From NCBI GenBank assembly GCA_963836875.1, contig CAWIKZ010000004.1, forward strand, positions 48,387 through 112,386: DNA of 64,000 nucleotides, in the 5' to 3' direction. The DNA comes from an uncultured Acidobacteriaceae bacterium (GTDB lineage: Bacteria; Acidobacteriota; Terriglobia; Terriglobales; Acidobacteriaceae). A model generated the notes under the pieces. That model did no database searches. It had not been told where the DNA came from and saw nothing but the letters and a program-made list of their open reading frames with translations. This document shows positions 6,066 through 60,793 of the stretch, piece by piece (position 1 is the first letter of the stretch; each line of letters begins with the position of its first letter). A program made the translations under genes and the position numbers.

Positions 6066-6189
6066 GTCGGCGATAGATTTCCGGCTGTCAAGCGCGGCCC
6101 CTGTGACCCACCTCACAGACCCCTGCCCACCATTCCCCTATCGTTATGAGTTATACCCTCACTTACTACGACTGAGAGGCACTCATACT

Positions 6190-7734
6190 ATGTCTACCGC
6201 CCCTGTCTCTGCGACTTCCCGCGTCCTGAACCCCACACTGGCCACTCGCATCATGAGCGCTGAAGAAGCTGCCGCCCTCATCCACTCGGGCGACCAGATT
6301 GGCATGAGCGGATTCACCGGTTCCGGCTATCCCAAGGCCGTGCCCATGGCGCTGGCACGCCGCATCTCCGATGCCAACCTGCGCGGACAGAAGTTCCAGG
6401 TCAGCATCTTCACCGGCGCCTCCACTGGGCCAGAGCTCGACGGCGCACTCGCCATGGCGGGCGGCATTCACCTGCGGCTGCCGTACCAATCCGATCCCGA
6501 GACGCGCAAGCGCATCAACGCCGGCGAGATGGAGTATATGGACATCCACCTCAGCCACGTGGCGCAGTTCGTGGAATACGGCTTCCTCGGCAAGCTTGAT
6601 CTTGCGCTGATCGAAGTCACCGCGGTGCTCGAGGACGGCCGCCTGGTGCCGAGTTCCTCGCTCGGCAACAACAAGACGTGGATCGAGCAGGCCGAGCACG
6701 TGATTATCGAGGTCAACTCGTGGCAGCCTGCGGCGCTGGAAGGCATGCACGACATCTACTACGGCCTGAAGCCGCCGCCTAACCGGGGACCGATTCCCTT
6801 GACGCATACCGGACAGCGCATCGGCAGCCCCTACCTCGAGGTGCCACCGGAGAAGGTTGTCGCGGTTGTGCTCACCGACTCACCCGACCGCAACAGCGCC
6901 TTCAAGGCACCCGATGACGCTTCGCGCCGCATCGCCGGACACATTCTCGAATTCCTGAGCTGGGAGGTGCAGAAAGGCCGCATGCCCGAGACGCTGCTGC
7001 CGTTGCAATCGGGCGTCGGCAACATCGCCAATGCGGTGCTCTTCGGCCTCGAAGAGGGCCCGTTTGAAGGACTCACCTCGTACACCGAAGTCATCCAGGA
7101 CGGCATGATTCGACTGCTGAAGTCGGGCAAGCTGACGGCGGCGTCGGCCACTGCGTTCTCGCTCAGCCCGGAGATGATGACCGAGGTCAACGCCGACATG
7201 GCCAGCTATCGCAAGCAAATCGTGCTGCGCCCGCAGGAAATCTCCAACAACCCTGAGATCATCCGCCGGCTGGGCGTGATCGCCATGAACGGCATGATCG
7301 AGGCCGACATGTACGGCAACGTGAACTCGACTCACGTGATGGGATCGCGCATTCAGAATGGCATTGGCGGCAGCGGTGATTTCGCCCGCAACGGATATCT
7401 GTCTATCTTCATGGCGCCATCGACGGCGCAGAAGGGGACCATCTCGACGATCGTGCCCATGGCCTCGCACGTGGACCACACCGAGCACGATGTCCAGGTG
7501 GTTGTGACCGAACAAGGCCTCGCCGACCTGCGCGGCCTCTCACCACGACAGCGCGCGCACCTCATCATCGAGAAGTGCGCCTCGCCCGACTACAAGCCGC
7601 TGCTGCTGGATTATCTTGGCCGGGCCGAGCGCCTGTCGTACGGACGCCACACTCCGCACCTGCTGAGTGAAGCCCTGGGCTGGCACAATCGATATTTGCG
7701 CAGCGGGCGGATGAAGCCGCAGGGGGAAGACTAG
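6190..7734 (+). CDS. acetyl-CoA hydrolase/transferase family protein (succinyl-CoA:acetate CoA-transferase-like)
   Basis: ORF 6103..7734; ATG at 6190 (MSTAPVS...). IMSAEEAAALIHSGDQIGMSGFTGSGYPKAVP, LQSGVGNIANAV, MNGMIEADMYGNVNSTHVMGSRIQNGIGGSGDF are characteristic of the AarC/Cat1-type CoA-transferases. Confidence 0.85.
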   Translation: MSTAPVSATSRVLNPTLATRIMSAEEAAALIHSGDQIGMSGFTGSGYPKAVPMALARRISDANLRGQKFQVSIFTGASTGPELDGALAMAGGIHLRLPYQSDPETRKRINAGEMEYMDIHLSHVAQFVEYGFLGKLDLALIEVTAVLEDGRLVPSSSLGNNKTWIEQAEHVIIEVNSWQPAALEGMHDIYYGLKPPPNRGPIPLTHTGQRIGSPYLEVPPEKVVAVVLTDSPDRNSAFKAPDDASRRIAGHILEFLSWEVQKGRMPETLLPLQSGVGNIANAVLFGLEEGPFEGLTSYTEVIQDGMIRLLKSGKLTAASATAFSLSPEMMTEVNADMASYRKQIVLRPQEISNNPEIIRRLGVIAMNGMIEADMYGNVNSTHVMGSRIQNGIGGSGDFARNGYLSIFMAPSTAQKGTISTIVPMASHVDHTEHDVQVVVTEQGLADLRGLSPRQRAHLIIEKCASPDYKPLLLDYLGRAERLSYGRHTPHLLSEALGWHNRYLRSGRMKPQGED

Positions 7735-7767
7735 CCAGCAGCCAGGAATCAATCGCGTGGCCTCCCT

Positions 7768-8121
7768 TCAGGAGGCCCGCAGATCCCGGCGCACGAGGGT
7801 TGAATCGAGGAAGAAGCCGAGGCCGACCGCGAACGGAATTACGCCGAAAGCCGCAGCGACCCAAGCGTCGGGTTCGGCGCGTGCGATCAGCGCAAATGCG
7901 ACCGTGTAGCCGATCGACGCACTAACCAGCAAGATGCCTGCCCGGCGAGAACGAGCAGCCTGAGAAAGCTCGGGCTCCATGGGAACGCTGAGCCCGCGTG
8001 CCAGCGCGGCCACGCGTTCTTCGGTGCGCAGCTTGCGCACCCGGTAATAGGTGTACATCCCCGCGATGGGAATCCCGAAGATCATAATTACTGCCACCAA
8101 GCCGATGATGTCTCCATCCAT
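7768..8121 (-). CDS. small integral membrane protein, unknown function
   Basis: ORF 7768..8241; likely start is ATG 8121 (MDGDIIGLVAVIMIFGIPIAGMYTYYRVRKLRTEER...). Three predicted TM helices. Confidence 0.45.
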   Translation of the reverse strand: MDGDIIGLVAVIMIFGIPIAGMYTYYRVRKLRTEERVAALARGLSVPMEPELSQAARSRRAGILLVSASIGYTVAFALIARAEPDAWVAAAFGVIPFAVGLGFFLDSTLVRRDLRAS

Positions 8122-44740: not shown

Positions 44741-45871
44741 CTAAGACACGCGATCGCCTTTTCGACGGTGAGACGCGCTGGACTTATCGGTCGGTATTCT
44801 CCCTTGAACGATCAAGGCTTCCTCATGGATATGTTCAAAAAGGTCCCGCGCAAAGCTCTCCGATAGAAGGTTCTTAACGCTAGACCGGACCCTATCCTGG
44901 ATTATGTGTTCCCATCTTTCCGGCTGAAACAACGATATATTGTGGGCCCGTTTCCAGGTCCCTATGTGCCGGACACATTCCATTCGTTTGGCCAGAAGTG
45001 CGATCAGATCGTTGTCAATCGCATCGATTTGTTTTCGCAGAAGCTTTATCTCTTGCGGAAGGCGCGCCGGCCCATCGCAGGACACGTAGCGCAGTTTGTT
45101 AATGAGTCTGCCATATTGGAGCGGAGTCAATTGTTGTCTGGCGTCGCTAAGAGAAGCCGGTGGCGCACAGTGGACCTCAATCATCAGACCGTCAAAAAGA
45201 AAGTCGATCGCCTGTTGCGCCAATGCCATGATGTAATTGCGCGTGCCGCAAATGTGGCTAGGGTCGCATATGAGCGGCAGGTCGGGCAGCCGTCTGCGTA
45301 GCTCGATGGGGATCCTCCAAATAGGCCGATTACGATACAGGTGCTCCCTATAAGTGGAAAAGCCCCGGTGTACCGCCATGATCTTTGTAATTCCGGCTTT
45401 GTTGATTCGTTCGATGGCTCCGATCCATAACTCCAGGTCCGGGTTCATAGGGTTCTTGATCATGACGGGAATGTCCACGCCCCGCAGCGCATCGGCAATC
45501 TCTTGGACCGCGAAAGGACTGGTGGTGGTCCGAGCGCCAATCCACAGAATATCGATCCCAGCTTTCAGACATTCCTCTACATGAGTCGGCTTTGCGGCTT
45601 CTGTAGCCACCGGCAACCCTGCAGCATTCCCCGCCTGTTTTAACCACATCAGCCCTTTCGCCCCAACGCCTTCGAACGAACCGGGACGCGTTCGTGGCTT
45701 CCAGATCCCCCCTCGTATGGCTGTGACTTCGTAGGCTGAGAGCTGCCGGGCCGTCTTCAGCATTTGCTCCTCTGATTCCACACTGCATGGACCGGCGATA
45801 AGGAACTTCTTCCTCACGGGCATGCCCCATTCAGAAAGCGGGTTGATACGCAGATTTGGCTCTGTTGACAT
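44741..45871 (-). CDS. bifunctional 3-deoxy-7-phosphoheptulonate (DAHP) synthase, type I-beta, fused to a C-terminal chorismate mutase
   Basis: ORF 44741..45955; ATG 45871 follows AAGGAGGG. The KDO8PS-like DAHPS core has KFLIAGPCSVES, GGIWKPRTRPGSFEGVG, LICDPSHICG. The C-terminal approx. 90 aa (LRKQIDAIDNDLIALLAKRMECVRHIGTWKRAHNISLFQPERWEHI) match an AroQ-type chorismate mutase. Confidence 0.85.
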   Translation of the reverse strand: MSTEPNLRINPLSEWGMPVRKKFLIAGPCSVESEEQMLKTARQLSAYEVTAIRGGIWKPRTRPGSFEGVGAKGLMWLKQAGNAAGLPVATEAAKPTHVEECLKAGIDILWIGARTTTSPFAVQEIADALRGVDIPVMIKNPMNPDLELWIGAIERINKAGITKIMAVHRGFSTYREHLYRNRPIWRIPIELRRRLPDLPLICDPSHICGTRNYIMALAQQAIDFLFDGLMIEVHCAPPASLSDARQQLTPLQYGRLINKLRYVSCDGPARLPQEIKLLRKQIDAIDNDLIALLAKRMECVRHIGTWKRAHNISLFQPERWEHIIQDRVRSSVKNLLSESFARDLFEHIHEEALIVQGRIPTDKSSASHRRKGDRVS

Positions 45872-46339
45872 GCTAAGTTCCCTCCTTCGCTCCTGTCCCA
45901 GAATTGCAAAGATGGCTGCCGAGGTTTGCCTGAGAGGGCGCGGGATTGTCATCAATCATAAAGGATGCCGTGCGTGGGCCGTGGCACAGAACACAGGATC
46001 AGGCCCACTCTTGAGTGGCTGTGGTGAGGGGAGATATTTTACAGTGGCGGGAAATGGCGGGATTTCGCGGGTTTTGTCGCGCCCGAATTCGGCGAAACTC
46101 GACCTACTTGTGCGGAATTGATTTGCAGTGCCTGGCTGTCGGCAACCGTAACCTATTGAAAAGCCAGCATGGATTTTCGTCCCGGGACCGAGAAATTGGC
46201 AGAGCGTGAAACCCAGGATCCAGTTACGCACTAACTATCTGATTACAAACAGCTTTCATTTGCGGAAAGCTCAGAACTGAGGTACCCAATCAGCGGCAGA
46301 AAAACGGCAGAGATCGAGCTGCGCATTTTGAGGGAGATC

Positions 46340-46612: not shown

Positions 46613-46964
46613 CGCTTGGTACCTTCTACTAGAACCCAGCCACTGGCGTTCCTTTCTTCTCCACCGAGCTAGTCAGCCCTTTCCTCGTTTGTCCGTTTTG
46701 GATATTGAGTCTTCGACAGGAGAGCAATGTCAATCCCAGCCTTAGCCCAAAACCACAGGCGCTCCCTGTGGTTCATCAAAACTAAACGCGGCCGAGTCTT
46801 CGATGCAGGAGGCCCTTTCCTTGGAAGGCAGCGCTTTGCATGGCGTGGTCTTCGACCGTTATGAGCATCCCGGAAACGAGAGGGAGAGCTCGACTGTCAG
46901 GATCCGGGCGTGAATCTCCCTCCGATCCTGACAGCGAAGGAGTTTAGTTCGGAGCTGGAAATTG

Positions 46965-48008
46965 TTAGGCCGCGACTGTGTAGCGGTGATGCAGACCACC
47001 GAGTCGCGGCAGAGAGATAACCTTGTGGCCACTCGAATGCGGTGACGCTGCAACTCGACCACCGGGAGTGTTCTTCCCGAGTCCGAGATGAGTCCGGTCC
47101 TCGTGGTAGTAACGGACGTACTCATTCAGCAACCGTCGCAGATGTCTGCGATTCAGCACGATCACATGATCGAGTAAGTCCCGCCGCACACTGCCAACCC
47201 AGCGCTCGGCAATGCCGTTCTGCCAAGGACTGCGGAATGCGGTGCGAATCGGTTGGCTGCCCATCGCCTTCACGGTCGAGACCACATCGGCACTGAACTT
47301 CGCGTCCCGATCAAAGATCAGGAAGCGTTGCGGCTGTTGGCTGTATTCCCAAGTCTCGTGCAACTGCAGGGCAACCCAAAGCGCGTTGGGATTGCGAGTC
47401 ACGTTGCAGTGCAGGATCCGACGCCGGTCGTGGCCGATCACGAAGAAGCAGTACAGAATGCCGAAGGTCACTGTCGGCACCGTGAAAAAGTCCATCGCTG
47501 CGATCGCCTCGCGATGATTACGAAGAAAAATCAGCCAGCGCCTGGCGGGATCGGGAGGTCTTGGGGCTCGCCGAACCCAGCGCGAAACCGTTGGTTCCGA
47601 TAGATCGAAGCCGAGCTTGAGCAACTCGCCGTGAATGCGGGGCGCTCCCCAAGTTGGATTTTCCGCAACCATTTGAAAAATTAAGGCTCGAATCTGTTTG
47701 CTCACCGGCTTTCGACCGCCCCTCGACTTGGCTCTGGAAAGCCATTTCCAATACAGCCGAAAACCGGCACGATGCCAGCCGACAACGGTTCTGGGTGTCA
47801 CCTGGATGAGAGGTTCCTTCCATCGAGCCCAGCACCTTCGCAATACGACCCAGAACAGCTTGTGTGACGCAGTGAGTCGCCGGCGAGGGCGCTGGGCGTG
47901 AAGAGCCAGCAACTGCTGACGCAGGGCAAGATTTTCGAGGATGATATCCTCGCGGGACCTGAATGCACCAACGACCCAGCCGAGGAAGTGCCGGAGCCAT
48001 ACGATCAT
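46965..48008 (-). CDS. DDE (rve/integrase-core) transposase of an IS element (IS481/IS3-superfamily-like)
   Basis: 347 aa and apparently intact. N-terminal ENLALRQQLLAL..RPRR helix, HTH-like FQMVAENPTWGAPRIHGELLKLG, and a catalytic core with DFFTV... / FDRDAKF / SPWQNGIAERW..S.RRDLLDH, tail YYHEDRTHLGLGKNTP. I could not identify the element ends. Confidence 0.8.
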   Translation of the reverse strand: MIVWLRHFLGWVVGAFRSREDIILENLALRQQLLALHAQRPRRRLTASHKLFWVVLRRCWARWKEPLIQVTPRTVVGWHRAGFRLYWKWLSRAKSRGGRKPVSKQIRALIFQMVAENPTWGAPRIHGELLKLGFDLSEPTVSRWVRRAPRPPDPARRWLIFLRNHREAIAAMDFFTVPTVTFGILYCFFVIGHDRRRILHCNVTRNPNALWVALQLHETWEYSQQPQRFLIFDRDAKFSADVVSTVKAMGSQPIRTAFRSPWQNGIAERWVGSVRRDLLDHVIVLNRRHLRRLLNEYVRYYHEDRTHLGLGKNTPGGRVAASPHSSGHKVISLPRLGGLHHRYTVAA

Positions 48009-48403
48009 GCCCAGAATCTTACCGGAACGTTGTCAATCGAGCTTGCTGCCAAGTCATTGATATTGCGGGTGTACGATGTTTTGATGAATGACAGGAGAAG
48101 GCAATCCGAAGAGACTAATCGAGGCTGCAAGTCTCGCCTTTTCAAACCGATCGAATTTCTTGACCATACGGGTAATTGATACGCTCGGCAGGCTGCGGAC
48201 CGCTCAGTTGATGACAACTCCTTCCGCTGTGCAATAACTCTCAAACGGGTAATCCGAGTTTGCCCGAAATACTTGACTCCCCGAAATAACACGTTGCAGC
48301 CGGAGTCGGAGATGCTGCCCCCGAGATTATGCCTTGGCCACCTTCATTCGGAAGTAGTGGCGAAGGATCGTGGAATGCTTCCGAAAGAAGCCGACGGACC
48401 CCA

Positions 48404-50371
48404 CTAATCAGAATCCGCAACCCGCGCCGGCCAATGTTCGGGAACAAGCGCGTGGGAATCGTCGCCCGTCCAGGGTTCAGGCTCCACAAGTGACTGCTGA
48501 AACCGCTCCTCGGGCAGATTCGCGTGCTCCAGCACAATAATCTGAAACTGCCCCTTCAAGTCGTCGCACGCCGTCCATAGTAACTCGAACATTCGTCTGA
48601 CCGCCTCCAAGTCCGCATCAGCATTGACGGTTTCCTGTGTGCCACCGGACAGTGATTTGTACTGCTGAAGCGACGGGAAATATACCTGCGTAGGTTGATC
48701 CAAGACAAGAAAGGCAGGTACTGGGCAGTTCGCAGCGACGAAGTAATAGTGCAGAGCAAGCAGCGAGATTAAGTGGCAACCCAACCAGTTTTGACCGCCA
48801 CCCATCCTCTGCATGGGAATTGGACGTCCCGGGCGGTCCACCACGACAGTGAGGCCGTTGATATCCAACCGGTACGGCCCCTTGTGCTCTAGGTCTAACC
48901 ATTCCGCCCATTTCGTCATTTGGCCGCCGATGCTGTTGAGCGCAGAAGACAAGAGTTCGTCGGAATCGACGTCCAGTAACGCGGTGAGGCGGGCAACCTC
49001 GGCGCTGGCTTCCTTCACCGCCCTCTGTAGCCGTTCATCCGGATGCGACAGTCGGAATGTCTCTAGGTACAGGCTAATGCGCCCGACCACTCGGGCGGCC
49101 CTCGAGTTCGCGTCTCGCAAGGCCTCCCCCGCCTCATCTTCAGCGACGGCCGCTTGCAGTGCAAACTCCGCCTCGGTGATCGTCTGACGCGCAGTATCTC
49201 TTTCCGTTTTCAACGTCTCGATGTATTCAGTCAATCGAGGTTGCTCAGCTTGCACTTGGTCGAGGTCAGTCCTTAAATGCTGTAGGCTCTGAACTATCGA
49301 TGCCACATTTGGGACCTCAGCACCGAGCTCGGCTGCGCACAACGGGCATTGGTGAACGGGCTGATCGGGATCAAAAAGCTCTATGGACCGTAAACGCATG
49401 AACTGTTCACCCGCTTGGCTCGCGTAGCCCTGAGAGTCCTTTTCAAACACCTGCGCCGCTTCGAGCTGCCTGGTGACATGCCTGACACGGTCCCGGCTCT
49501 GATCTACGTTGCGACGTAGCTCAGTGAGCCTCTCCGTCTCTATCGGCGGTGCGGACGGCTTCCACCTCATTACGCCGTCCAACAGGCGAAGCACATCCTC
49601 AAATGACCCTACATCTGGGGCCCCAGTCAAAATTCCTGCCTGCTCAGCCTCCTCAATCAGTGCACGGCCCCTCGTTAACTGATCCGCAGCCACAAACTGC
49701 GCCTCATCCAGGTCACGCTGGGCGACCTTCAGCTTGCGCCGAGCCAATCTCAGATCTTGCTCCACGGCAACCCGCTCTGCACTGACTGTTCCCAAGAAAT
49801 ATGGCAGGGTGTCCTTGATCGCCTGCGGCATGAACTCTTCAACCTGCCGATAGAAAAGAAGATCTTTGTTTGCGATCAGGCTCTGATTCTGGAACAGATA
49901 GTAGTCGGTGTGCTTGACAGTGGCTTCGAGTTGTTCGCGCGTTTGACCCGGCCCAGGAATGTGCAGGTTGGGAGAGATTCCCAAGCGTCTGGATAACTCC
50001 GCCTGCACGCCGTCGTCGTTTGTGTTCGGAGACAGTCTCGAGAGTTCTGGGGGTACCAGTGCGGTGCCGATCTCGATGTATGCTTGGCTCTGGCTCTTGG
50101 CGTTCGCTTTCGGGACTGGTTTTGCAATCAGCACCTCGGTGTCCTCACCAAAGGCGAAGATGACTGCGAACCATGCAACTTTCTCGCGCACTACGCCTTC
50201 GTAAACTCCAAAAGTTGAGTACCCAAGACAGTAATGAATGATCTCAATGACTGACGATTTCCCCGTGAGTGATTTGCCCGTGATGATGTTGACGTCGCCA
50301 TAGTTGAAGTTCAACTCGCGAGTTTCTCCAGTATGGCTATACAGGACGATTGATCGTATCTGCATCGTCAT
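48404..50371 (-). CDS. DUF3732-type SMC/Rad50-like ABC ATPase (ABC-3C system ATPase component)
   Basis: ORF 48404..50386 (GTG). The in-frame ATG 50371 overlaps the upstream stop (ATGA). Walker A VNIITGKSLTGKSSVIEII, a long helical/coiled-coil middle (about residues 200-480), and C-terminal PVPAFLVLDQPTQVYFP (Walker B/D-loop) plus FQIIVLEH. Confidence 0.8.
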   Translation of the reverse strand: MTMQIRSIVLYSHTGETRELNFNYGDVNIITGKSLTGKSSVIEIIHYCLGYSTFGVYEGVVREKVAWFAVIFAFGEDTEVLIAKPVPKANAKSQSQAYIEIGTALVPPELSRLSPNTNDDGVQAELSRRLGISPNLHIPGPGQTREQLEATVKHTDYYLFQNQSLIANKDLLFYRQVEEFMPQAIKDTLPYFLGTVSAERVAVEQDLRLARRKLKVAQRDLDEAQFVAADQLTRGRALIEEAEQAGILTGAPDVGSFEDVLRLLDGVMRWKPSAPPIETERLTELRRNVDQSRDRVRHVTRQLEAAQVFEKDSQGYASQAGEQFMRLRSIELFDPDQPVHQCPLCAAELGAEVPNVASIVQSLQHLRTDLDQVQAEQPRLTEYIETLKTERDTARQTITEAEFALQAAVAEDEAGEALRDANSRAARVVGRISLYLETFRLSHPDERLQRAVKEASAEVARLTALLDVDSDELLSSALNSIGGQMTKWAEWLDLEHKGPYRLDINGLTVVVDRPGRPIPMQRMGGGQNWLGCHLISLLALHYYFVAANCPVPAFLVLDQPTQVYFPSLQQYKSLSGGTQETVNADADLEAVRRMFELLWTACDDLKGQFQIIVLEHANLPEERFQQSLVEPEPWTGDDSHALVPEHWPARVADSD

Positions 50372-50859
50372 GGACGAATTCCCCACATCGCGTAAATCGT
50401 CCGAACGTCGCCTGCACCGCTAAACCAGCGTCCGACGAAATGCGCCTGCTTCAGACACTCTGCTACTTCGGTGTGGGAACCCCAGAGCTTCGGCTGATTG
50501 CCGAGTGGGGGCGCCGTAATGAGTCCAGCCTCGGTGAACGCGAGAAGAGCGCGGGTGCAACCGAAGAGAGTCGCTTCGCGGTAATACGGGACCAAAGCGG
50601 CGCACCGCTGCGCGAATCCGATTCTTACATCCTGATGCTCCTGAAGCCACGGATGCATCTTGGTACTTATTTTCGCAGGGAGCAGTTCCCGAGTGAATTT
50701 ATGAAGGACGATCGGGAGCAACAGAGCCAATAATGGATAAGGAATGCCCTCGGGGTTCTTCTGAACGAATCCCTTTACACATTCCCTCAACAGCAGCGCA
50801 CAGAAGGCCGGGTTCAGCAATGTTGCAACTTCTACCGGACGCTTTGACCACGGTTTCAT
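50368..50859 (-). CDS. ABC-3C 'middle component'-like helical adaptor protein
   Basis: 163 aa, predicted all-alpha (LLNPAFCALLLRECVKGF..., PYPLLALLLPIVLH). Sandwiched with 2-nt and -4-nt junctions between the effector and the ATPase, the signature position of ABC-3C middle components. Confidence 0.6.
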   Translation of the reverse strand: MKPWSKRPVEVATLLNPAFCALLLRECVKGFVQKNPEGIPYPLLALLLPIVLHKFTRELLPAKISTKMHPWLQEHQDVRIGFAQRCAALVPYYREATLFGCTRALLAFTEAGLITAPPLGNQPKLWGSHTEVAECLKQAHFVGRWFSGAGDVRTIYAMWGIRP

Positions 50860-50861
50860 GA

Positions 50862-52049
50862 TTATGTGCCGACGTTACTCGCGACGATAGCGGAAATCCT
50901 TTCCAAGAATTTTGGGTGCCACCAAACCCGGGGCGGAGTCGCGTTTGCAAGGATGTGATAGCTTCCCCGCATAACATAAGCAGCTGCGACGTCGGGCCGG
51001 ATTCGATAATCGGCCTCCAGATCCACCCAGTTGAAGATACTTCTGCCCGCTTCGCGCAATACCTCTTCGCTTGCGCTTTCACTCAGGTCGGCGGCTACCG
51101 CTTCGGCAAATCTCTCCCATTCATCAATCAGAGTCTCTTCGTACTTTTCAATCTTGCCACCTATCAGCAGTTCGTCTTTTGCCCAGCGCGACCGCTGCTC
51201 GAACGCCCGATAATAATCGAGGATCGCCTTCTCGATGCGCTTCAGGCCAACATCAATATCCCGAAGTTGCTTCACGAATGTCCTATCATCCCCGCCTGGA
51301 TCGATGGTGTCTGGTTCCGCCCTCAGAAAGTCGATCGGAAGCGCGCTTGGGCCGAACTGATCTGCGATGCTCCTAACCATGTCCGAAACTTCGAACCCGG
51401 TCACCGGACGAGCATCCTTAGCGAGAAACTGTCCAGCAACTCTCTCGAACCACCACCCCTCGAGCCGTTGCAAAACCGCGGTTCGGTAGTCCCGGTCAAC
51501 GGCAAGTCGAATCTTCTCTTCGATCTTCACACGAACATCAGCGATGTCGGGCGACTTGTCTAGGGTCGAGATAGCGTTGATGAGTCTGGTCCGCTGGTCA
51601 TCGCTGAGCGCGGCAAAGGCTGTAAACGACGCCTGTAATTTCTCGTTCTTAGATTCGCGAGCAACCTTGAGAAGCGCGGCAGTTATACAATCAGCTTCCC
51701 GTTGTGCGTTTGGGCGCAGAAGCGATGCGATTGACCCTTGCGGTGCCGTCCCAGTTGTTACCAGCGTCAAGGTCATCGGAGGGATTGAAATGGCACCGGT
51801 CCTCAGATGATCGCTCCAGATGCGAAGAGTCTTCCAGAGATCAGGCGAAAAATCCGTCAGCACAGCAGCATTAATGTGGTGCTTCGTTTGGACGAGGCCA
51901 GCGGAGCCGGCGGAGCTTTCCACAACAATGTCATCCAGGCTTTCGAGAACCAGTTGCTGATCTTCCGGGCCCTCCAGCAATTGCCAGAGGGCGTACCGAG
52001 CTTGATACCAATATCCAAGCGCCGGCTCTTTCGCAGAGAAATCAGTCAT
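50862..52049 (-). CDS. ABC-3C effector: N-terminal Cap4/DUF4297-like PD-(D/E)xK nuclease + conserved ABC-3C C-terminal domain
   Basis: GYWYQARYALWQLLEG...LVLESLDDIVVES...GLVQTKHH fits the DUF4297/Cap4 endonuclease motif layout (E..DD...E...Q.K). The C-terminal half (FVKQLRDIDV..., YYRAFEQRSRW, AAYVMRGSYHILAN...VWWHPKF) resembles the CTD shared by ABC-3C effectors. Confidence 0.7.
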   Translation of the reverse strand: MTDFSAKEPALGYWYQARYALWQLLEGPEDQQLVLESLDDIVVESSAGSAGLVQTKHHINAAVLTDFSPDLWKTLRIWSDHLRTGAISIPPMTLTLVTTGTAPQGSIASLLRPNAQREADCITAALLKVARESKNEKLQASFTAFAALSDDQRTRLINAISTLDKSPDIADVRVKIEEKIRLAVDRDYRTAVLQRLEGWWFERVAGQFLAKDARPVTGFEVSDMVRSIADQFGPSALPIDFLRAEPDTIDPGGDDRTFVKQLRDIDVGLKRIEKAILDYYRAFEQRSRWAKDELLIGGKIEKYEETLIDEWERFAEAVAADLSESASEEVLREAGRSIFNWVDLEADYRIRPDVAAAYVMRGSYHILANATPPRVWWHPKFLERISAIVASNVGT

Positions 52050-52353
52050 GACTGGTATCAGGCTCGCATCTACAACTAACGCCCAAAGGTTGGGTGAGCA
52101 TTGAGGCCGGGCGTGGCCACCTCTTGCACCACCCGTCGATGCAGTTCGTGGCTAAGTTGCGAAGGTACCAAGGATTCGTTGGCGAAGCAATTGGCGATTG
52201 GTGTTCAAGCGCTGTCGATGAATATATCGGACTCTACAACCGGCCCGATTAACAGCCAGACAGTTATCACGTTTTCATCACAGTTAAGCCCGCATTCTGT
52301 GCCGCGCAGACGAAAAGGCAGATCTTAGCCCGAGGCAAATTGCTGAAAACAAA

Positions 52354-52443
52354 TGGCGGAAGCGTGTGCGAGTCGAACGCACCATTGACATCGAAGATGC
52401 CAATCGCCGGTTTTGAAGACCGCCTGTTCCCGAGCAAGCCTCC
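52354..52443 (-). tRNA. tRNA-like gene with UCA anticodon (candidate tRNA-Sec / non-canonical 'allo-tRNA'-like or decayed selC)
   Basis: Minus strand: GGAGGCTT-GC-TCGGGAACA-GGCGGT-CTTCAAA-ACCGGC-G-ATTGGCATC-TTC-GATGTCAAT-G-GTGCG-TTCGACT-CGCAC-ACGCTTCC-G-CCA. It has an 8-bp acceptor stem, a 5-bp T-stem, a long variable arm, a CUUCAAA loop (anticodon at 52414-52416) and an encoded CCA. The D-arm region is too short for a canonical fold. Confidence 0.55.
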
Positions 52444-52589
52444 GCCCCTTGATCCTGTGGTTGACCTGCCGACACTGCAAAATAATTCAAATTCGCTGCA
52501 AGGCAATTCAAACATTACTGCGATTGAATTCCAACAATTACAGTGGCGCCACGGGAAGTCGCGGCTTCAGCGTGTAAAATCGCAGTCTA

Positions 52590-54288: not shown

Positions 54289-54486
54289 CTAGGCGACCTG
54301 GAATTCCATTTTCTTTGCGTCAGTCACACGTCGGGAAGCGTCCAGTATCTCCATCGAAACCAGATCTCCTTGTTCGTCATAATCCAGGATGATGCCGGGG
54401 TTGTCCTCGTCGCTTTCGGCTACCGCCACGCCTTCTTTCAGAACGAAGCTTAGCGTATCGGTCTTCGGATCATAGCTGGCTTTCAC
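54289..54486 (-). CDS. DUF2283-family protein (putative antitoxin)
   Basis: MKASYDPKTDTLSFVLKEG...ILDYDEQGDLVSMEILDASRRV, the typical DUF2283 pattern. 4-nt overlap with the upstream DUF4258 gene. Confidence 0.7.
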   Translation of the reverse strand: MKASYDPKTDTLSFVLKEGVAVAESDEDNPGIILDYDEQGDLVSMEILDASRRVTDAKKMEFQVA

Positions 54487-54767
54487 GATTTCGTCCTCCA
54501 GTACTTGCCGATCTTGCTGGTGCGATAGACCGTCACCACTTCAGCAGGATCGCGATCGATGTCCACAAACACCCGCACGAGATACTCTTGTCCCGCCGCT
54601 CCCATCAAAACTATAGATTGTAGAACGATTCGGCCAGAACGAACGTCTATTGTTTGCTGTGGCGATCGTAAAATCGCGCGCACCACGTCCTCCCTGATCG
54701 ATCGCCTTTTCATTTCAAACAGCGCATGCTCGGTTATAACGTAATTTGTCATCCCAAAGGCAGACAT
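54483..54767 (-). CDS. DUF4258-family protein (putative toxin)
   Basis: ITEHALFEMKRRSIREDVVRAIL....QEYLVRVFVDIDRDPAEVVTVYRTSK. Pairs with DUF2283 as in known two-gene modules. The start may be ATG 54752. Confidence 0.65.
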   Translation of the reverse strand: MSAFGMTNYVITEHALFEMKRRSIREDVVRAILRSPQQTIDVRSGRIVLQSIVLMGAAGQEYLVRVFVDIDRDPAEVVTVYRTSKIGKYWRTKS

Positions 54768-58412: not shown

Positions 58413-59387
58413 TCAATGGGCGGCGCTCAGAAACCAGCCCACGATTCGCCCGAATGCAGCCGTAAGTCCGTCTTCCGGCTCCTCGCCGCGCCGGGCAAGG
58501 GAATGATTCGCACCTTCGATCCGTTCAAAGACAGCTTTTCGCTGCTTGGCTGCCAGTTCGGCTCGCATCACGTCGAAGGCTGCAATGGGACTCCATTCGT
58601 CTGCCGTGCCGTGGACCAGATACAAAGCCGCTTGGGATTGAAGGCATTCCTGAATCAGCGATGTTTTGAGCAGGCTCGACCACAGCCGATAAGGCTGCCC
58701 CCAACAGAATTGCGTCGGGCTATCGGGATCGCGGAGAATTTTCGCCCAACAACTATAAACTTCGACCTCGGGATCAAGGCCCTTACGTCGGACATAATCT
58801 GCCAGAACGAAGAGATGGTTCGGGCCTCCCCCGGCAATTGATGCCGCATGAGTAACGGACGGCATAGCATTCGTTACGTGGACGGCGACCACCCCGCCTT
58901 CCGAACCGCCGATCACCAGGGTCCTCGATCCGTCGATACCGGGCAGTTGATGTGCTGCATTGATGGAAGCGACAATCGCCTCGGTCCATCGGTCGAGAGT
59001 ATGTTCAGCCAGAAACTCCGGGCGACAGGTCTTCGCATCCCCGGGGTCGGCCTGCCTATCCAGGAATTCGACGCCGGGTTTTTCTACCACGAGAACTCTC
59101 GACCGGCCTCTCGTGACGTCGAGCAGCAACACGAATGCACCCTGCATTATCCGTCCGTTCTGGCGCTGGAACAGTGATGTACAGCCTGTACCCTGCACAA
59201 AAACGAGCAGCGGAATCGACCGCTCGGCCGCACCCTCCGACAAATAGAAAGTGATGGTCCTGCCCAACTGATCTTTTGTGGAGTAGCGATGGAAGGCCGT
59301 TCCGGGGACTGCTCCGCCGTCATTGACCGCTGCATCAACCAGAGTGGCCGAAAGGAGAAGAAGACCTAAAATCCACAGTCGCATCAT
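58413..59387 (-). CDS. secreted alpha/beta hydrolase
   Basis: ORF 58413..59468. ATG 59387 gives the signal peptide MMRLWILGLLLLSATLVDA. Nucleophile elbow LVIGGSEGGVVAV and LVHGTADEW. Confidence 0.7.
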   Translation of the reverse strand: MMRLWILGLLLLSATLVDAAVNDGGAVPGTAFHRYSTKDQLGRTITFYLSEGAAERSIPLLVFVQGTGCTSLFQRQNGRIMQGAFVLLLDVTRGRSRVLVVEKPGVEFLDRQADPGDAKTCRPEFLAEHTLDRWTEAIVASINAAHQLPGIDGSRTLVIGGSEGGVVAVHVTNAMPSVTHAASIAGGGPNHLFVLADYVRRKGLDPEVEVYSCWAKILRDPDSPTQFCWGQPYRLWSSLLKTSLIQECLQSQAALYLVHGTADEWSPIAAFDVMRAELAAKQRKAVFERIEGANHSLARRGEEPEDGLTAAFGRIVGWFLSAAH

Positions 59388-59458
59388 CGTGATTAGCAAT
59401 CTCCTCTTGAGTCTCCGAATCGGATGCATTGTAATAGAAGCAGCGTAGCGCCGAAGAC

Positions 59459-60367
59459 ATGACGACAAAAGGAATCCGTCCGTTCTTCAGCGGCCTGCTC
59501 GAACTCATGCGTAACCTTGCGATATTCGGCTTCTTTGTCCTGCTGGCGGCGTCTGCCCTGGCTCAGACAGCCCCAGCGCCAGCCGCACCGGCGCAGACTC
59601 CAACCACTCCCGCCGCCTGGCCCACCGCCCACTTCGCTGCGACCAAAGATCCCAGTGTGCAGAAGGCGTTCCAGATCCTGACTGACATGCTCAAAGCCCT
59701 GGGCGGCGATACGTACCTCAATGTGCGCGATATGAAGAGCGAAGGCCGCGCTTATGCCTTCTACCACGGACGACCGAGTGGCCAGGGTCTTGAGTTCTGG
59801 CGGTTCTGGGAGTGGCCCGACAAAGAGCGGGTCGAGTTTACCAAGCAGCGCGACGTGATCGAACTCTTTGTTGGCGATAAGGGGTACGAGATCACCTACA
59901 AGGGCACGACGACACAGGACCCGAAGGACCTCCAGGATTATCTGCGCCGCCGCGATCATTCGTTGGAGTTGGTGATTCGCAAATGGCTGGCAGCGTCGGA
60001 CACCATGATTCTGTACAACGGCACGGCAATCGTAGAGCAGAACCTCACCGACCAGGTCACCATCTTGAATTCCACGAATGACAGCGTGACGTTGTCGGTT
60101 GATCCGCGTTCCCACCTGCCGGTGAGGAAAACCTATAGCTATCGCGATCCGCTCGATCGGCAGCTCGATGACGAGGCCGAGGTTTTCAGCAACTATCGCC
60201 TGGTCCAGGGTATTCAGACACCCATGAGCATTGTGCGGCATCGCAACGGTGAAATGACCAGTCAGCGCTTCATCACGTCTGTGACCTACAACAACGGCTT
60301 CCCGCCCGCTATGTTTGAGACCAAGGGCCTCACCTACAACCAGCCCAAGAGTGGGGAGCGGAAGTAG
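59459..60367 (+). CDS. secreted hypothetical protein (LolA-like/outer-membrane-lipoprotein-sorting-fold candidate)
   Basis: Signal peptide MRNLAIFGFFVLLAASALAQ (possible start 59507), a Pro/Ala/Thr linker, and a beta-rich body. I prefer the plus-strand ORF over the antisense 392-aa ORF (59393..60571) because of the signal peptide and normal amino-acid composition. Confidence 0.55.
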   Translation: MTTKGIRPFFSGLLELMRNLAIFGFFVLLAASALAQTAPAPAAPAQTPTTPAAWPTAHFAATKDPSVQKAFQILTDMLKALGGDTYLNVRDMKSEGRAYAFYHGRPSGQGLEFWRFWEWPDKERVEFTKQRDVIELFVGDKGYEITYKGTTTQDPKDLQDYLRRRDHSLELVIRKWLAASDTMILYNGTAIVEQNLTDQVTILNSTNDSVTLSVDPRSHLPVRKTYSYRDPLDRQLDDEAEVFSNYRLVQGIQTPMSIVRHRNGEMTSQRFITSVTYNNGFPPAMFETKGLTYNQPKSGERK

Positions 60368-60385
60368 AGAGCGGAAACTAAATTG

Positions 60386-60793
60386 ATGAAGATCGCTCAT
60401 ATGATAGGTCTGTTTAGCAATGTGCAGGTGTACCGATCTAGTCGAACGCGGTGGATTAATCTCGCTTTTGTCGTTGCTTTGTGCCTGCTTCTGCTGACTG
60501 GATATCTCAGTGAGGACACCCTGTCCGAGTTGTGGCCTTATGTCGCCCTTCTTCCATTTTTCATAGTGCAATTTTTGTGGCCGACCACGGTTGGTTGGCT
60601 GCTCTCGATAGGAGCATGGCTCGTATTCGCATTTGGTGTATGTCTTTTTGACCGCCTGATCTACGATGTCAAGGCCAATAGTGTGGAAGTTCTTGTCCTA
60701 TTTGGGATAGTGCCTGCGCTATTACTTTTCTTCTGTCGGCCGCGAGCGCAGATCCGATCTGACACATCAAATGTGGCGGGTGGCCAAGCTTAA
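60386..60793 (+). CDS. hypothetical integral membrane protein
   Basis: Four hydrophobic helices. Noticeably lower GC than its neighbours. I recognise no family. Confidence 0.4.
   Translation: MKIAHMIGLFSNVQVYRSSRTRWINLAFVVALCLLLLTGYLSEDTLSELWPYVALLPFFIVQFLWPTTVGWLLSIGAWLVFAFGVCLFDRLIYDVKANSVEVLVLFGIVPALLLFFCRPRAQIRSDTSNVAGGQA

Follow-up and report, generated by a model that had tools for sequence, protein, structure and literature searches.

What does the three-gene locus at positions 48404-52049 of the window (the whole 64,000-nucleotide stretch of Acidobacteriaceae DNA analysed) encode, and does it, as the original prediction had it, belong to a class of conflict systems whose mechanism is not understood? 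Judged from its sequence, the locus is an intact Lamassu operon of three genes (ABC-3C, DdmABC-type), carried by a soil Acidobacteriaceae genome and with predicted anti-phage activity. Its open reading frames, of 395 aa (50862..52049), 163 aa (50368..50859) and, counted from a GTG, 660 aa (48404..50386), are co-directional on the minus strand with near-zero spacing, as had been described.

50862..52049, minus strand: lmuA, effector, 395 aa, stop TAA 50862-50864 (open reading frame; PADLOC LmuA 1e-61 over aa 3-384)
50368..50859, minus strand: lmuC, middle component, 163 aa, ATG 50859 (Pfam PF20131 MC3 1e-47, full length; PADLOC LmuC 2.5e-13)
48404..50371, minus strand: lmuB, SMC/Rad50-like ABC ATPase, 655 aa from ATG 50371, alternative GTG 50386 (PADLOC LmuB 3.8e-123; DUF3732 2.6e-47)
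48384..48418, minus strand: terminator-like hairpin with a 10-bp stem and T-rich tail CGGCTTCTTT, extending across the lmuB stop, probable end of the operon (consensus scan; a pattern match only)

The lmuA TAA (50864-50862) is separated by a 2-nt gap from the lmuC ATG, and the lmuC stop TGA (50370-50368) overlaps an in-frame lmuB ATG (50371-50369) as ATGA. This overlap supports the translational coupling first suggested, and a tight lmuC-lmuB junction is a family trait: of 66 relatives, 33 have a 4-nt overlap and 64 a distance of at most 12 nt. ATG 50371 is likely the true start of lmuB, since homologues begin MxMQ there, the PADLOC LmuB profile starts there and a public gene call agrees. Pfam and PADLOC profiles, together with sequence matches to PDB entries, bear out the ABC-3C identity of all three proteins; given the tight junctions and HMM E-values of 1e-43 to 1e-123, the observed trio is not due to chance.

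The effector had been read as a Cap4/DUF4297-like PD-(D/E)xK nuclease followed by an ABC-3C C-terminal domain, and both halves of this reading agree with the features located in it:

51345..52049, minus strand: Cap4-like PD-(D/E)xK nuclease domain, LmuA N-terminus, ~aa 1-235 (fold and conserved residues)
51930-51944, minus strand: catalytic core E36-S-L-D39-D40 (conserved residues)
51882-51890, minus strand: catalytic core Q54-T-K56 (conserved residues)
50898..51278, minus strand: CTD7 domain, LmuA C-terminus, aa 258-384 (Pfam PF20283 2.4e-43, profile positions 1-125 of 126)

Sequence searches matched the lmuA product to the PDB LmuA chains 9hqu_C, 9hqx_A and 9nxx_A. An AF2 model of the protein (pLDDT 75.8) is nearest to the solved Salmonella and V. 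cholerae LmuA structures (E = 1.8e-10 to 7e-8), with 9hr5 and 9nxx as best Foldseek matches (E = 1.8e-10), followed by DUF4297-HerA 8zir and CBASS Cap4 6wam (prob 0.95-0.99). In the Foldseek alignments the model shares 15-18% identity with the solved LmuA chains, indicating distant homology. Residues E36, D39, D40, Q54 and K56 are invariant, first in 44/44 homologues and then in 70/70 of a larger set. At the position aligned with K56, the deposited Salmonella LmuA chains carry either Lys or Ala, a difference that corresponds to the 'KA' catalytic mutant (bioRxiv 10.1101/2025.03.14.643221). Pfam Cap4_nuclease is the best match of the N-domain and falls below threshold (E = 0.059, 14 bits vs 26.2); the basis for calling the domain Cap4-like is its fold together with the conserved residues. 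In the solved homologues, CTD7 is the oligomerisation domain sequestered by LmuB/LmuC (bioRxiv 10.1101/2025.03.14.643221; PMC12663957).

The 163-aa protein was rightly taken for an ABC-3C middle component: besides the MC3 and LmuC profiles, the PDB LmuC chains 9hqu_D and 9uxh_D match it, albeit weakly (E = 0.0015-0.0095), and its single-sequence AF2 model contains helices only, which at pLDDT 45 is a weak test of the all-helical description. LmuB, predicted to be a DUF3732 SMC-like ABC ATPase, likewise matches solved LmuB proteins in addition to both profiles: Salmonella 9hqu_A (1.8e-61, residues 2-647), and V. cholerae 9ny5_D (1.5e-43, split over two head segments).

50252..50278, minus strand: Walker A GKSLTGKSS, with Lys38 (Gx4GK[ST] in 77/77 relatives)
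49337..49348, minus strand: zinc-hook motif CPLC, aa 342-345, at the apex of the coiled coil (aligns with Salmonella CPMC; CPxC in 77/77 relatives)
48785..48805, minus strand: ABC signature region MGGGQNW, with Gly525 where Salmonella has Ser536 (aligned with IGSGSNW of 9hqu_A and IGSGANW of 9ny5_D)
48686..48712, minus strand: deviant Walker B and D-loop FLVLDQPTQ (hhhhDQ in 77/77 relatives)

The H-loop is conserved in 77/77 relatives as well, and FLVLDQPTQ fits the short-Lamassu Walker B consensus hhhhD[Q/S/T/E] (PMC12663957). The zinc hook is needed for defence by the Salmonella system (bioRxiv 10.1101/2025.03.14.643221). Every motif quoted in the original prediction, in LmuA as in LmuB, is thus present.

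The Rad50/SbcC-like architecture of LmuB, weak NCBIfam Rad50 and PADLOC JetC matches and the proposed origin of Lamassu from SbcCD (PMC12663957) would also suit a housekeeping Rad50/SbcCD-type repair complex or another SMC system such as Wadjet. However, Rad50 models reach 16 bits against cut-offs of 847-1000, and in PADLOC JetC scores ~20 bits against 411 bits for LmuB. The partners are MC3 and a Cap4-CTD7 effector, with Mre11/SbcD and JetA/B/D absent, and close relatives lack the locus, unlike a core repair gene. Family scores and the missing operon in sister genomes effectively refute the repair or SMC reading, leaving it virtually no probability.

The signature region bears on a different alternative, namely a Lamassu relic that is inactive or in decay, with heads unable to engage, for example, or with its promoter or integrase context lost by rearrangement. 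Gly525 stands in place of the signature Ser, at which S536R abolishes defence in Salmonella (bioRxiv 10.1101/2025.03.14.643221). Ser to Gly is, however, a far milder change than Ser to Arg; GGG occurs in ~15/77 relatives, including the closest intact ones (GSG in most), and this recurrence indicates a tolerated natural variant. Degraded relatives are known, one without lmuA (L082) and one with the operon split by an IS (L012), and rearrangement also marks the surroundings of the present operon, which contain a degenerate tRNA-Sec remnant and an IS element. A consensus scan found no sigma-70-like promoter upstream of lmuA, although such a scan is not designed for Acidobacteria. Against decay, the three ORFs are full length, each catalytic and ATPase motif is intact and the coupled junctions are preserved, making a relic unlikely. 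The operon very probably represents a type II "short" Lamassu of the Cap4-CTD7/MC3 sub-family that is complete and appears functional, with the accessory status and mechanism proposed below.

That the operon might be mobile defence cargo beside a transposase had been proposed at the outset, and the flanking features are consistent with this idea:

52354..52448, minus strand: degenerate tRNA-Sec remnant at the border of the strain-specific segment, upstream of lmuA by ~300 nt (ARAGORN tRNA-SeC)
46765..48095, unstranded: IS element next to the operon, with imperfect 18-nt inverted repeats at its termini, 46765-46782 and 48078-48095 (inverted-repeat detection)
46965..48008, minus strand: DDE transposase, 347 aa, inside the IS (Pfam rve_3 and HTH_32)

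The remnant scores 47.5 bits with Rfam against 68-69 for canonical copies; its D-arm is collapsed, and canonical acidobacterial tRNA-Sec matches 52422..52354 only. Synteny with the closest relative stops at 52453, 5 nt from the remnant. The IS transposase is matched below cut-off by the NCBIfam IS3 and IS481 models, and the element has a single copy within the window. The suggested AT-richer island proved real but modest: operon GC is 55.5% vs 59.4% in the remainder (z = -3.1), and GC3 of the operon genes is 0.595-0.641 vs a median of 0.715 (sd 0.069). The neighbouring DAHP-synthase gene has a GC3 as low as theirs.

In four close relatives, contigs whose MurJ is 82-95% identical carry no operon at this site. 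What lies upstream of MurJ varies among the four, and three retain the MurJ-DUF2283-bactofilin-RNase R side. The lmuA-lmuC-lmuB order is held in essentially all of ~80 loci from many phyla, and homologous trios lie in unrelated contexts, including next to an integrase and within a defence island; no flanking genes common to the window and any Lamassu relative were found. A core-gene status, with the same context family-wide, is contradicted by the close relatives without the operon and by these unrelated contexts. Full trios also occur on five predicted viral contigs. Taken together, these data support the view that the operon is accessory cargo in this genome, on a strain-specific segment between the tRNA-Sec remnant and the IS.

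The position of the operon on such a segment, with an IS and an att-like remnant of a tRNA gene nearby, could also suggest a module mainly for mobile-element competition or island stabilisation (plasmid elimination, addiction) rather than host phage defence, as could the trios on viral contigs and others found on a 6-11 kb segment with 99.9-100% identity between loci of differing taxonomic assignment; V. cholerae DdmABC eliminates plasmids and is toxic if over-expressed (bioRxiv 10.1101/2025.03.14.643221). Pfam annotation of the neighbours, however, revealed no plasmid or conjugation genes beside the operon. This explanation appears very unlikely, and it is not truly exclusive of anti-phage defence because the molecular mechanism would be the same.

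As for that mechanism, the claim that it is not understood is out of date. Three-gene systems of the ABC-3C kind are type II Lamassu (bioRxiv 10.1101/2025.06.23.660979), and the Cap4-CTD7 and MC3 sub-family has been studied by cryo-EM of the apo, DNA-bound and active-tetramer states, by biochemistry and by in vivo mutants (PMC12663957; bioRxiv 10.1101/2025.03.14.643221). Three studies in 2025 described a monomeric LmuA sequestered by an LmuB dimer and LmuC, with DNA-end sensing leading to LmuA release and to a tetramer that is the active nuclease (PMC12663957; bioRxiv 10.1101/2025.03.14.643221; bioRxiv 10.1101/2025.06.23.660979). The operon accordingly adds an acidobacterial member to a sub-family of solved structure and activation mechanism, a routine member and not an open puzzle.

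The individual steps were demonstrated in V. cholerae DdmABC and Salmonella LmuACB; for the acidobacterial operon we infer them, with its activity, stoichiometry and trigger, by homology. Briefly, lmuA, lmuC and lmuB would be co-translated from a single tightly coupled operon, and two LmuB would form a folded SMC/Rad50-like dimer joined via the CxxC zinc hook. This dimer and one LmuC would grip one LmuA through CTD7, keeping the Cap4-like nuclease monomeric and inactive while the complex surveys DNA. Binding of LmuB/LmuC to phage or plasmid DNA ends or aberrant replication intermediates would release LmuA, a step to which the binding of ATP and its slow hydrolysis at the deviant Walker B would contribute. 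Free LmuA would then tetramerise via CTD7, two paired nuclease domains forming one active site with D39/D40, Q54 and K56, which would cut DNA with little sequence preference and kill or arrest the infected cell (abortive infection).

Among known systems, Salmonella enterica LmuACB (PDB 9hqu, 9hqx, 9hr5; Li et al., bioRxiv 10.1101/2025.03.14.643221) belongs to the same sub-family and gives each of the three proteins its best PDB match, with LmuB matched over its full length. Both systems have an effector with Cap4-like N-domain and CTD7, an MC3 LmuC, a short DUF3732 LmuB (~655-660 aa) carrying a single CPxC zinc hook, and the same gene order, catalytic Lys position and deviant Walker B (LDQP). 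They differ in LmuA sequence (16-18% identity in Foldseek alignments), in the signature motif (GGGQN in the window, GSGSN in Salmonella) and in host, a soil/peat Acidobacteriaceae MAG versus an enterobacterium.

Vibrio cholerae DdmABC (= LmuACB; PDB 9nxx, 9ny5, 9uxh; PMC12663957; PMC11707656; bioRxiv 10.1101/2025.06.23.660979) has an identical Pfam architecture, DdmA being Cap4 plus CTD7 (PF20283), DdmB MC3 (PF20131) and DdmC a Rad50/SbcC-like ATPase (PMC11707656). The equivalent of K56 is DdmA K56 or K57, depending on the paper, and DdmABC likewise lies on a genomic island (VSP-2). V. cholerae LmuB lacks the zinc hook (PMC12663957), whereas the window LmuB has CPLC and matches it more weakly than its Salmonella counterpart. 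Type I Lamassu (two-gene LmuA-LmuB, e.g. Bacillus cellulasensis) also combines an SMC-like LmuB sensor with a nuclease effector, DNA-end sensing and effector release (bioRxiv 10.1101/2025.06.23.660979) but has no LmuC, in contrast to the clear MC3 LmuC of the window.

CBASS Cap4 (e.g. Acinetobacter baumannii, PDB 6wam, 6vm6) and DUF4297-HerA (8zir) share with LmuA the nuclease fold, the D...QxK active-site layout and activation by oligomerisation. The window effector, however, has no SAVED sensor domain or HerA partner; its C-terminal domain is CTD7 and its partners are LmuB and LmuC. Finally, Rad50-Mre11/SbcCD, of which SbcCD is the proposed Lamassu ancestor (PMC12663957), resembles the system in its ABC ATPase heads, intervening antiparallel coiled coil and CxxC zinc hook, and it too recognises DNA ends or palindromes. 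The Lamassu coiled coil is far shorter, Mre11/SbcD is absent, the effector is set free instead of staying at the DNA end (bioRxiv 10.1101/2025.03.14.643221), and the window locus is accessory where Rad50-Mre11/SbcCD is core.

The three minus-strand open reading frames of the operon lie where the original prediction placed them, and all motifs quoted in it were located at exact coordinates:

50862..52049, minus strand: lmuA, effector, 395 aa
50368..50859, minus strand: lmuC, middle component, 163 aa
48404..50386, minus strand: lmuB, ATPase, 660 aa counted from a GTG

The lmuB gene probably starts at the in-frame ATG at 50371, giving a protein of 655 aa; this start is preferred because homologues begin with MxMQ there, the PADLOC LmuB profile starts there, and the public gene call on an identical contig agrees. 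Only 2 nt separate lmuA from lmuC (...ACA TAA tc ATG AAA...), and the TGA of lmuC is contained in an ATGA, so that it overlaps lmuB by 4 nt (...TCC ATG ACG...). Junction statistics for 66 loci revealed that the lmuC-lmuB pair overlaps by 4 nt in 33 and by 1 nt in 10 of them and is spaced by ≤12 nt in 64, and that the lmuA-lmuC junction measures ≤19 nt in 65/66. The translational coupling proposed earlier is thus a conserved trait of the family. The gene order lmuA-lmuC-lmuB is likewise kept in almost every one of about 80 relatives, wherever the contig permits. A perfect 12-nt palindrome (CAGTCATGACTG, window 52043-52054) is centred on the lmuA start codon and may act as an operator or form a translational hairpin. 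A sigma-70 consensus scan upstream of lmuA returned no promoter, this consensus being uninformative for Acidobacteria.

Profile searches bore out the family assignment, with one strong Pfam match per protein and all three named Lamassu by PADLOC. In Pfam, PF20283 CTD7 (ABC-3C) covers LmuA residues 258-384 (2.4e-43), PF20131 MC3 spans the whole of LmuC (profile positions 1-159 of 159, 1e-47), and PF12532 DUF3732 (LmuB_C) falls on the C-terminal head of LmuB (2.6e-47). The PADLOC matches were 1e-61 for LmuA, 2.5e-13 for LmuC and 3.8e-123 for LmuB (PDLC03859, profile positions 1-608 of 611); no NCBIfam model matches LmuA or LmuC. All three proteins also have sequence matches to solved Lamassu chains from Salmonella enterica (9hqu, 9hqx, 9hr5) and Vibrio cholerae (9nxx, 9ny5, 9uxh), ranging from an end-to-end alignment of LmuB residues 2-647 with 9hqu_A (1.8e-61) to E = 0.0015-0.0095 for LmuC against the LmuC chains of the PDB. 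A single-sequence AF2 model of LmuC (pLDDT 45) was too poor for a fold search. The Walker B form and 655-aa length of LmuB fit what Haudiquet et al. define as "short Lamassu" (PMC12663957), in which LmuB has about 600 aa, a short coiled coil and a deviant Walker B of the form hhhhD[Q/S/T/E], the CxxC zinc hook being optional in the family. The locus, whose products carry the source annotations "hypothetical protein" or "ABC-three component system protein", is therefore an intact type II short Lamassu operon and an ordinary case of the Cap4-CTD7/MC3 sub-family.

The N-terminal domain of LmuA, described earlier as a Cap4-like nuclease, keeps this label by virtue of its fold and active-site residues and not by a Pfam assignment: PF14130 Cap4_nuclease is the top match on the isolated domain but stays below threshold (E = 0.059), so that the label rests on the same grounds as in the solved homologues. 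An AlphaFold2 model built with 44 homologues as input (mean pLDDT 75.8) retrieved the solved LmuA nucleases as its best Foldseek matches (E = 1.8e-10 to 7e-8), with DUF4297-HerA and CBASS Cap4 proteins ranking next (probability 0.95-0.99). The TM-scores of about 0.45 are attributed to the flexible inter-domain linker described for LmuA. Residues E36, D39, D40, Q54 and K56 are invariant among 70 LmuA relatives, and the deposited Salmonella LmuA chains differ at the residue aligned with K56, one having Lys and the other Ala, which is the position of the catalytic "KA" mutant (bioRxiv 10.1101/2025.03.14.643221). Model and alignment together argue for a predicted Cap4-like PD-(D/E)xK nuclease with a catalytic Lys.

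Several other systems with related components were considered and rejected. A CBASS Cap4 effector would share the nuclease, which in that system is fused to a SAVED/CARF ligand-sensing domain and encoded near a CD-NTase; the C-terminal half of LmuA is CTD7 instead, and a scan of 10 ORFs flanking the operon, from 43 to 58 kb, gave no match to a CD-NTase family. Rad50-Mre11/SbcCD was dismissed as LmuB scores 16 bits with the NCBIfam Rad50 models, against cut-offs of 847-1000, and its partner genes encode MC3 and Cap4-CTD7 proteins, not Mre11/SbcD. Type I Lamassu comprises two genes and no LmuC, which is present here. DUF4297-HerA and Wadjet were discarded as well.

An NCBI MAG contig (GCA_049279775.1) matches the window at 100% identity, and the LmuB-coding DNA also occurs at 100% identity in "Acidobacteriaceae bacterium palsa_340". 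On one side the operon is flanked by MurJ, a DUF4258/DUF2283 pair, bactofilin and RNase R, and on the other by an insertion sequence (IS) with a DDE transposase, followed by a DAHP synthase-chorismate mutase:

46765-48095: IS, single copy, with 18-nt imperfect inverted repeats CCTGTGGTTCATCAAAAC and CCTGTCATTCATCAAAAC

Its transposase is intact (347 aa, rve_3/HTH_32 DDE type), with sub-cut-off matches to the IS3 and IS481 models of NCBIfam. A short palindrome (AACCACAGG-cgctc-CCTGTGGTT) adjoins the IS at its left end. The overlapping DUF4258 (94 aa) and DUF2283 (65 aa) genes, at window 54289-54767 on the minus strand just downstream of MurJ, resemble a toxin-antitoxin pair; DUF2283 is retained in two close relatives, and a similar pair lies about 9 kb upstream of Lamassu in another relative (L020).

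The description of the operon as part of an AT-richer island holds for the direction of the difference, the composition being only mildly atypical (GC 55.5% vs 59.4%, z = -3.1; GC3 of the Lamassu genes 0.595-0.641 vs a median of 0.715). Equally low GC3 values (0.556-0.609) are found in other genes of the window, at 58413-60571 and 44741-45955; the segment 58370-59573 is absent from the alignment of the closest relative and may be further strain-specific DNA. Comparison with four long contigs carrying a MurJ 82-95% identical to that of the window supports the accessory status of the operon: none of the four has Lamassu upstream of MurJ, where all differ from the window and from each other, and the MurJ-DUF2283-bactofilin-RNase R side is kept in three of them. 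The closest contig is homologous to the window at the nucleotide level (about 90%), and this homology ends at 52453. The DAHP-synthase side, which would mark the left island boundary, was not found within 10 kb in any of the four MurJ-orthologue loci. In the closest relative (L217, MurJ 95% identical), the place of Lamassu upstream of MurJ is taken by genes for a tyrosine integrase, an IS91-type Y2 transposase and copper oxidases (7136-8020 and 6150-7139 of that contig). Given this other cargo at the same position, the intergenic site looks like a recurrent insertion spot.

A further feature lies 5 nt from the end of synteny with the closest relative:

52354-52448, minus strand: tRNA-Sec remnant (ARAGORN and Rfam call at 52358..52448)

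With 47.5 bits in Rfam against a gathering threshold of 47, a collapsed D-arm and acceptor-stem mismatches, it differs from the canonical acidobacterial tRNA-Sec, defined here by 91/120 metagenomic loci with the same 3' 30-mer, which measures 97-99 nt and scores 68-69 bits. The match to the canonical gene is limited to about 69 nt from the anticodon stem to CCA (52422..52354) plus about 20 nt downstream; it is a degenerate remnant, not an intact gene. An intact selC in a conserved neighbourhood was ruled out, as a tblastn search with 12 flanking window proteins, for which the positive control worked, recovered no flanking genes in common with the window in the 120 tRNA-Sec loci. Among 30 intact soil Acidobacteria selC loci, four (L112, L120, L124 and L160) carry a tyrosine integrase gene 14-41 nt downstream of the tRNA on the opposite strand, encoding proteins of about 366-373 aa that are 61-63% identical to that of L112, and downstream genes in the remainder are very diverse. 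On these grounds selC appears to be a hot-spot for island integration in these Acidobacteria. From the partial tRNA match and its position next to the synteny end we infer that an element targeting tRNA-Sec introduced the operon and left the remnant behind as an att-type junction. It could instead be a decayed tRNA-Sec gene. A search for an att duplicate returned no direct repeat of the tRNA-Sec 3' end in the window besides the remnant (25-mer and 17-mer, ≤3 mismatches).

Relatives of the trio were collected by scanning one genome per GTDB species, which yielded 325 LmuB relatives; the best 80 of these are spread over Acidobacteriota, Cyanobacteria, Chloroflexota, Bacteroidota, Bacillota, Gemmatimonadota, Planctomycetota and two archaeal lineages. 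One trio has an integrase alongside (L003), another lies within a defence island with Mrr, a DEAD/Helicase_C/MZB helicase and an Eco57I-like gene (L004), others occupy unrelated chromosomal contexts, and the whole trio is present on five predicted viral contigs. Conservation as core genes in an identical context was looked for and not found, in view of these varied settings and of the absence from the four MurJ contigs, so that the proposed mobile, accessory role is supported. The operon was probably acquired horizontally.

Several of these loci merit separate mention. L054, L069 and L075 each carry, 450-700 nt upstream of lmuA and oriented like it, an intact tRNA (Lys, Thr or Met), a layout that parallels the tRNA remnant and lmuA of the window. 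Within L038-L043, loci assigned to Anaeromassilibacillus and to MAGs of Lachnospiraceae, unclassified Clostridia and Bacillota, and a Thermoplasmatales archaeon have 6-11 kb in common at 99.9-100% identity, each such segment ending about 50 nt past lmuB; a Butyricicoccus contig has 3.2 kb of the segment in common, up to the contig end. This identity points to a recently mobile element carrying a Cap4-CTD7-MC3 Lamassu, although the archaeal assignment may stem from a binning error. Two loci are cases of Lamassu decay: an Anaerolineae MAG in which an IS encoding a 474-aa rve/rve_3 transposase interrupts the operon between lmuC and lmuB (L012, 7637-9395), and a Solibacteraceae MAG in which lmuA is missing and lmuC truncated (L082).

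The claim that such systems are not mechanistically understood has been overtaken by recent work. Three-gene ABC-3C systems are type II Lamassu (bioRxiv 10.1101/2025.06.23.660979), and about 15% of prokaryotic genomes carry Lamassu (PMC12663957). In V. cholerae, DdmA consists of Cap4 and CTD7, DdmB is MC3, and DdmC is the Rad50/SbcC-like ATPase (PMC11707656); Li et al. explicitly defined the sub-family "Lamassu Cap4-CTD7-MC3", with V. cholerae DdmABC and Salmonella LmuACB as members (bioRxiv 10.1101/2025.03.14.643221). Three 2025 studies provided apo, DNA-bound and active structures for it (PMC12663957; bioRxiv 10.1101/2025.03.14.643221; bioRxiv 10.1101/2025.06.23.660979). It is the structurally best-understood Lamassu sub-family. 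Briefly, one monomeric LmuA is sequestered through its C-terminal domain by two LmuB and one LmuC; once freed, it assembles into a tetramer in which two Cap4 domains form one cleavage site (PMC12663957; bioRxiv 10.1101/2025.03.14.643221). Cleavage leaves 1-nt 3' overhangs with a degenerate sequence preference and fits abortive infection (bioRxiv 10.1101/2025.03.14.643221). The LmuA1:LmuB2:LmuC1 complex and the LmuA tetramer formed on activation are known from the homologues only, and by analogy may also be formed by the window proteins. The questions remaining in the field are what exactly triggers release and what ATP hydrolysis contributes (PMC12663957; bioRxiv 10.1101/2025.03.14.643221), neither of which is more testable at this locus than in the established model systems. 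The locus adds little on mechanism; its use lies in a clean annotation of lmuA, lmuC and lmuB in a peat/soil Acidobacteriaceae genome and in a further case of defence genes at a hypervariable, tRNA-remnant-marked spot beside an IS.

LmuB itself carries a Walker A (GKSLTGKS) and a Walker B (FLVLDQ). All 77 LmuB relatives possess both motifs, as Gx4GK[ST] and the deviant hhhhDQ, together with a CPxC zinc hook and an H-loop. The ABC signature region of the window LmuB (window 48785-48805, aa 523-529), a motif for head engagement, is conserved as a region but has Gly525 at the Ser position. In Salmonella LmuB this Ser is S536, and S536R is defence-dead (bioRxiv 10.1101/2025.03.14.643221). As the GGG variant recurs in about 15 of the 77 relatives, the closest intact ones included, we read the Ser-to-Gly change as a probably tolerated natural variant and not a lesion, which may interest groups studying ATP-head engagement in Lamassu. 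We give a slim chance to a joint reading in which, on the one hand, the GGG[QKE]N branch that includes this operon might engage its ATPase heads otherwise than the solved Salmonella and Vibrio systems do and, on the other, the operon may have come as cargo when an integrative element that targets tRNA-Sec entered a secondary site, leaving an attL-like hybrid pseudo-tRNA without integrase as a minimal "tRNA-fragment plus Lamassu" island. If true, neither the altered head engagement nor the tRNA-Sec cargo origin would change what the system is. Compared with the solved systems, the window LmuB shares with its Salmonella counterpart the zinc hook at the same aligned place (CPLC at aa 342-345 vs CPMC), whereas in the signature it has MGGGQNW, with Gly, against IGSGSNW or IGSGANW, with Ser, in the LmuB of Salmonella and Vibrio.
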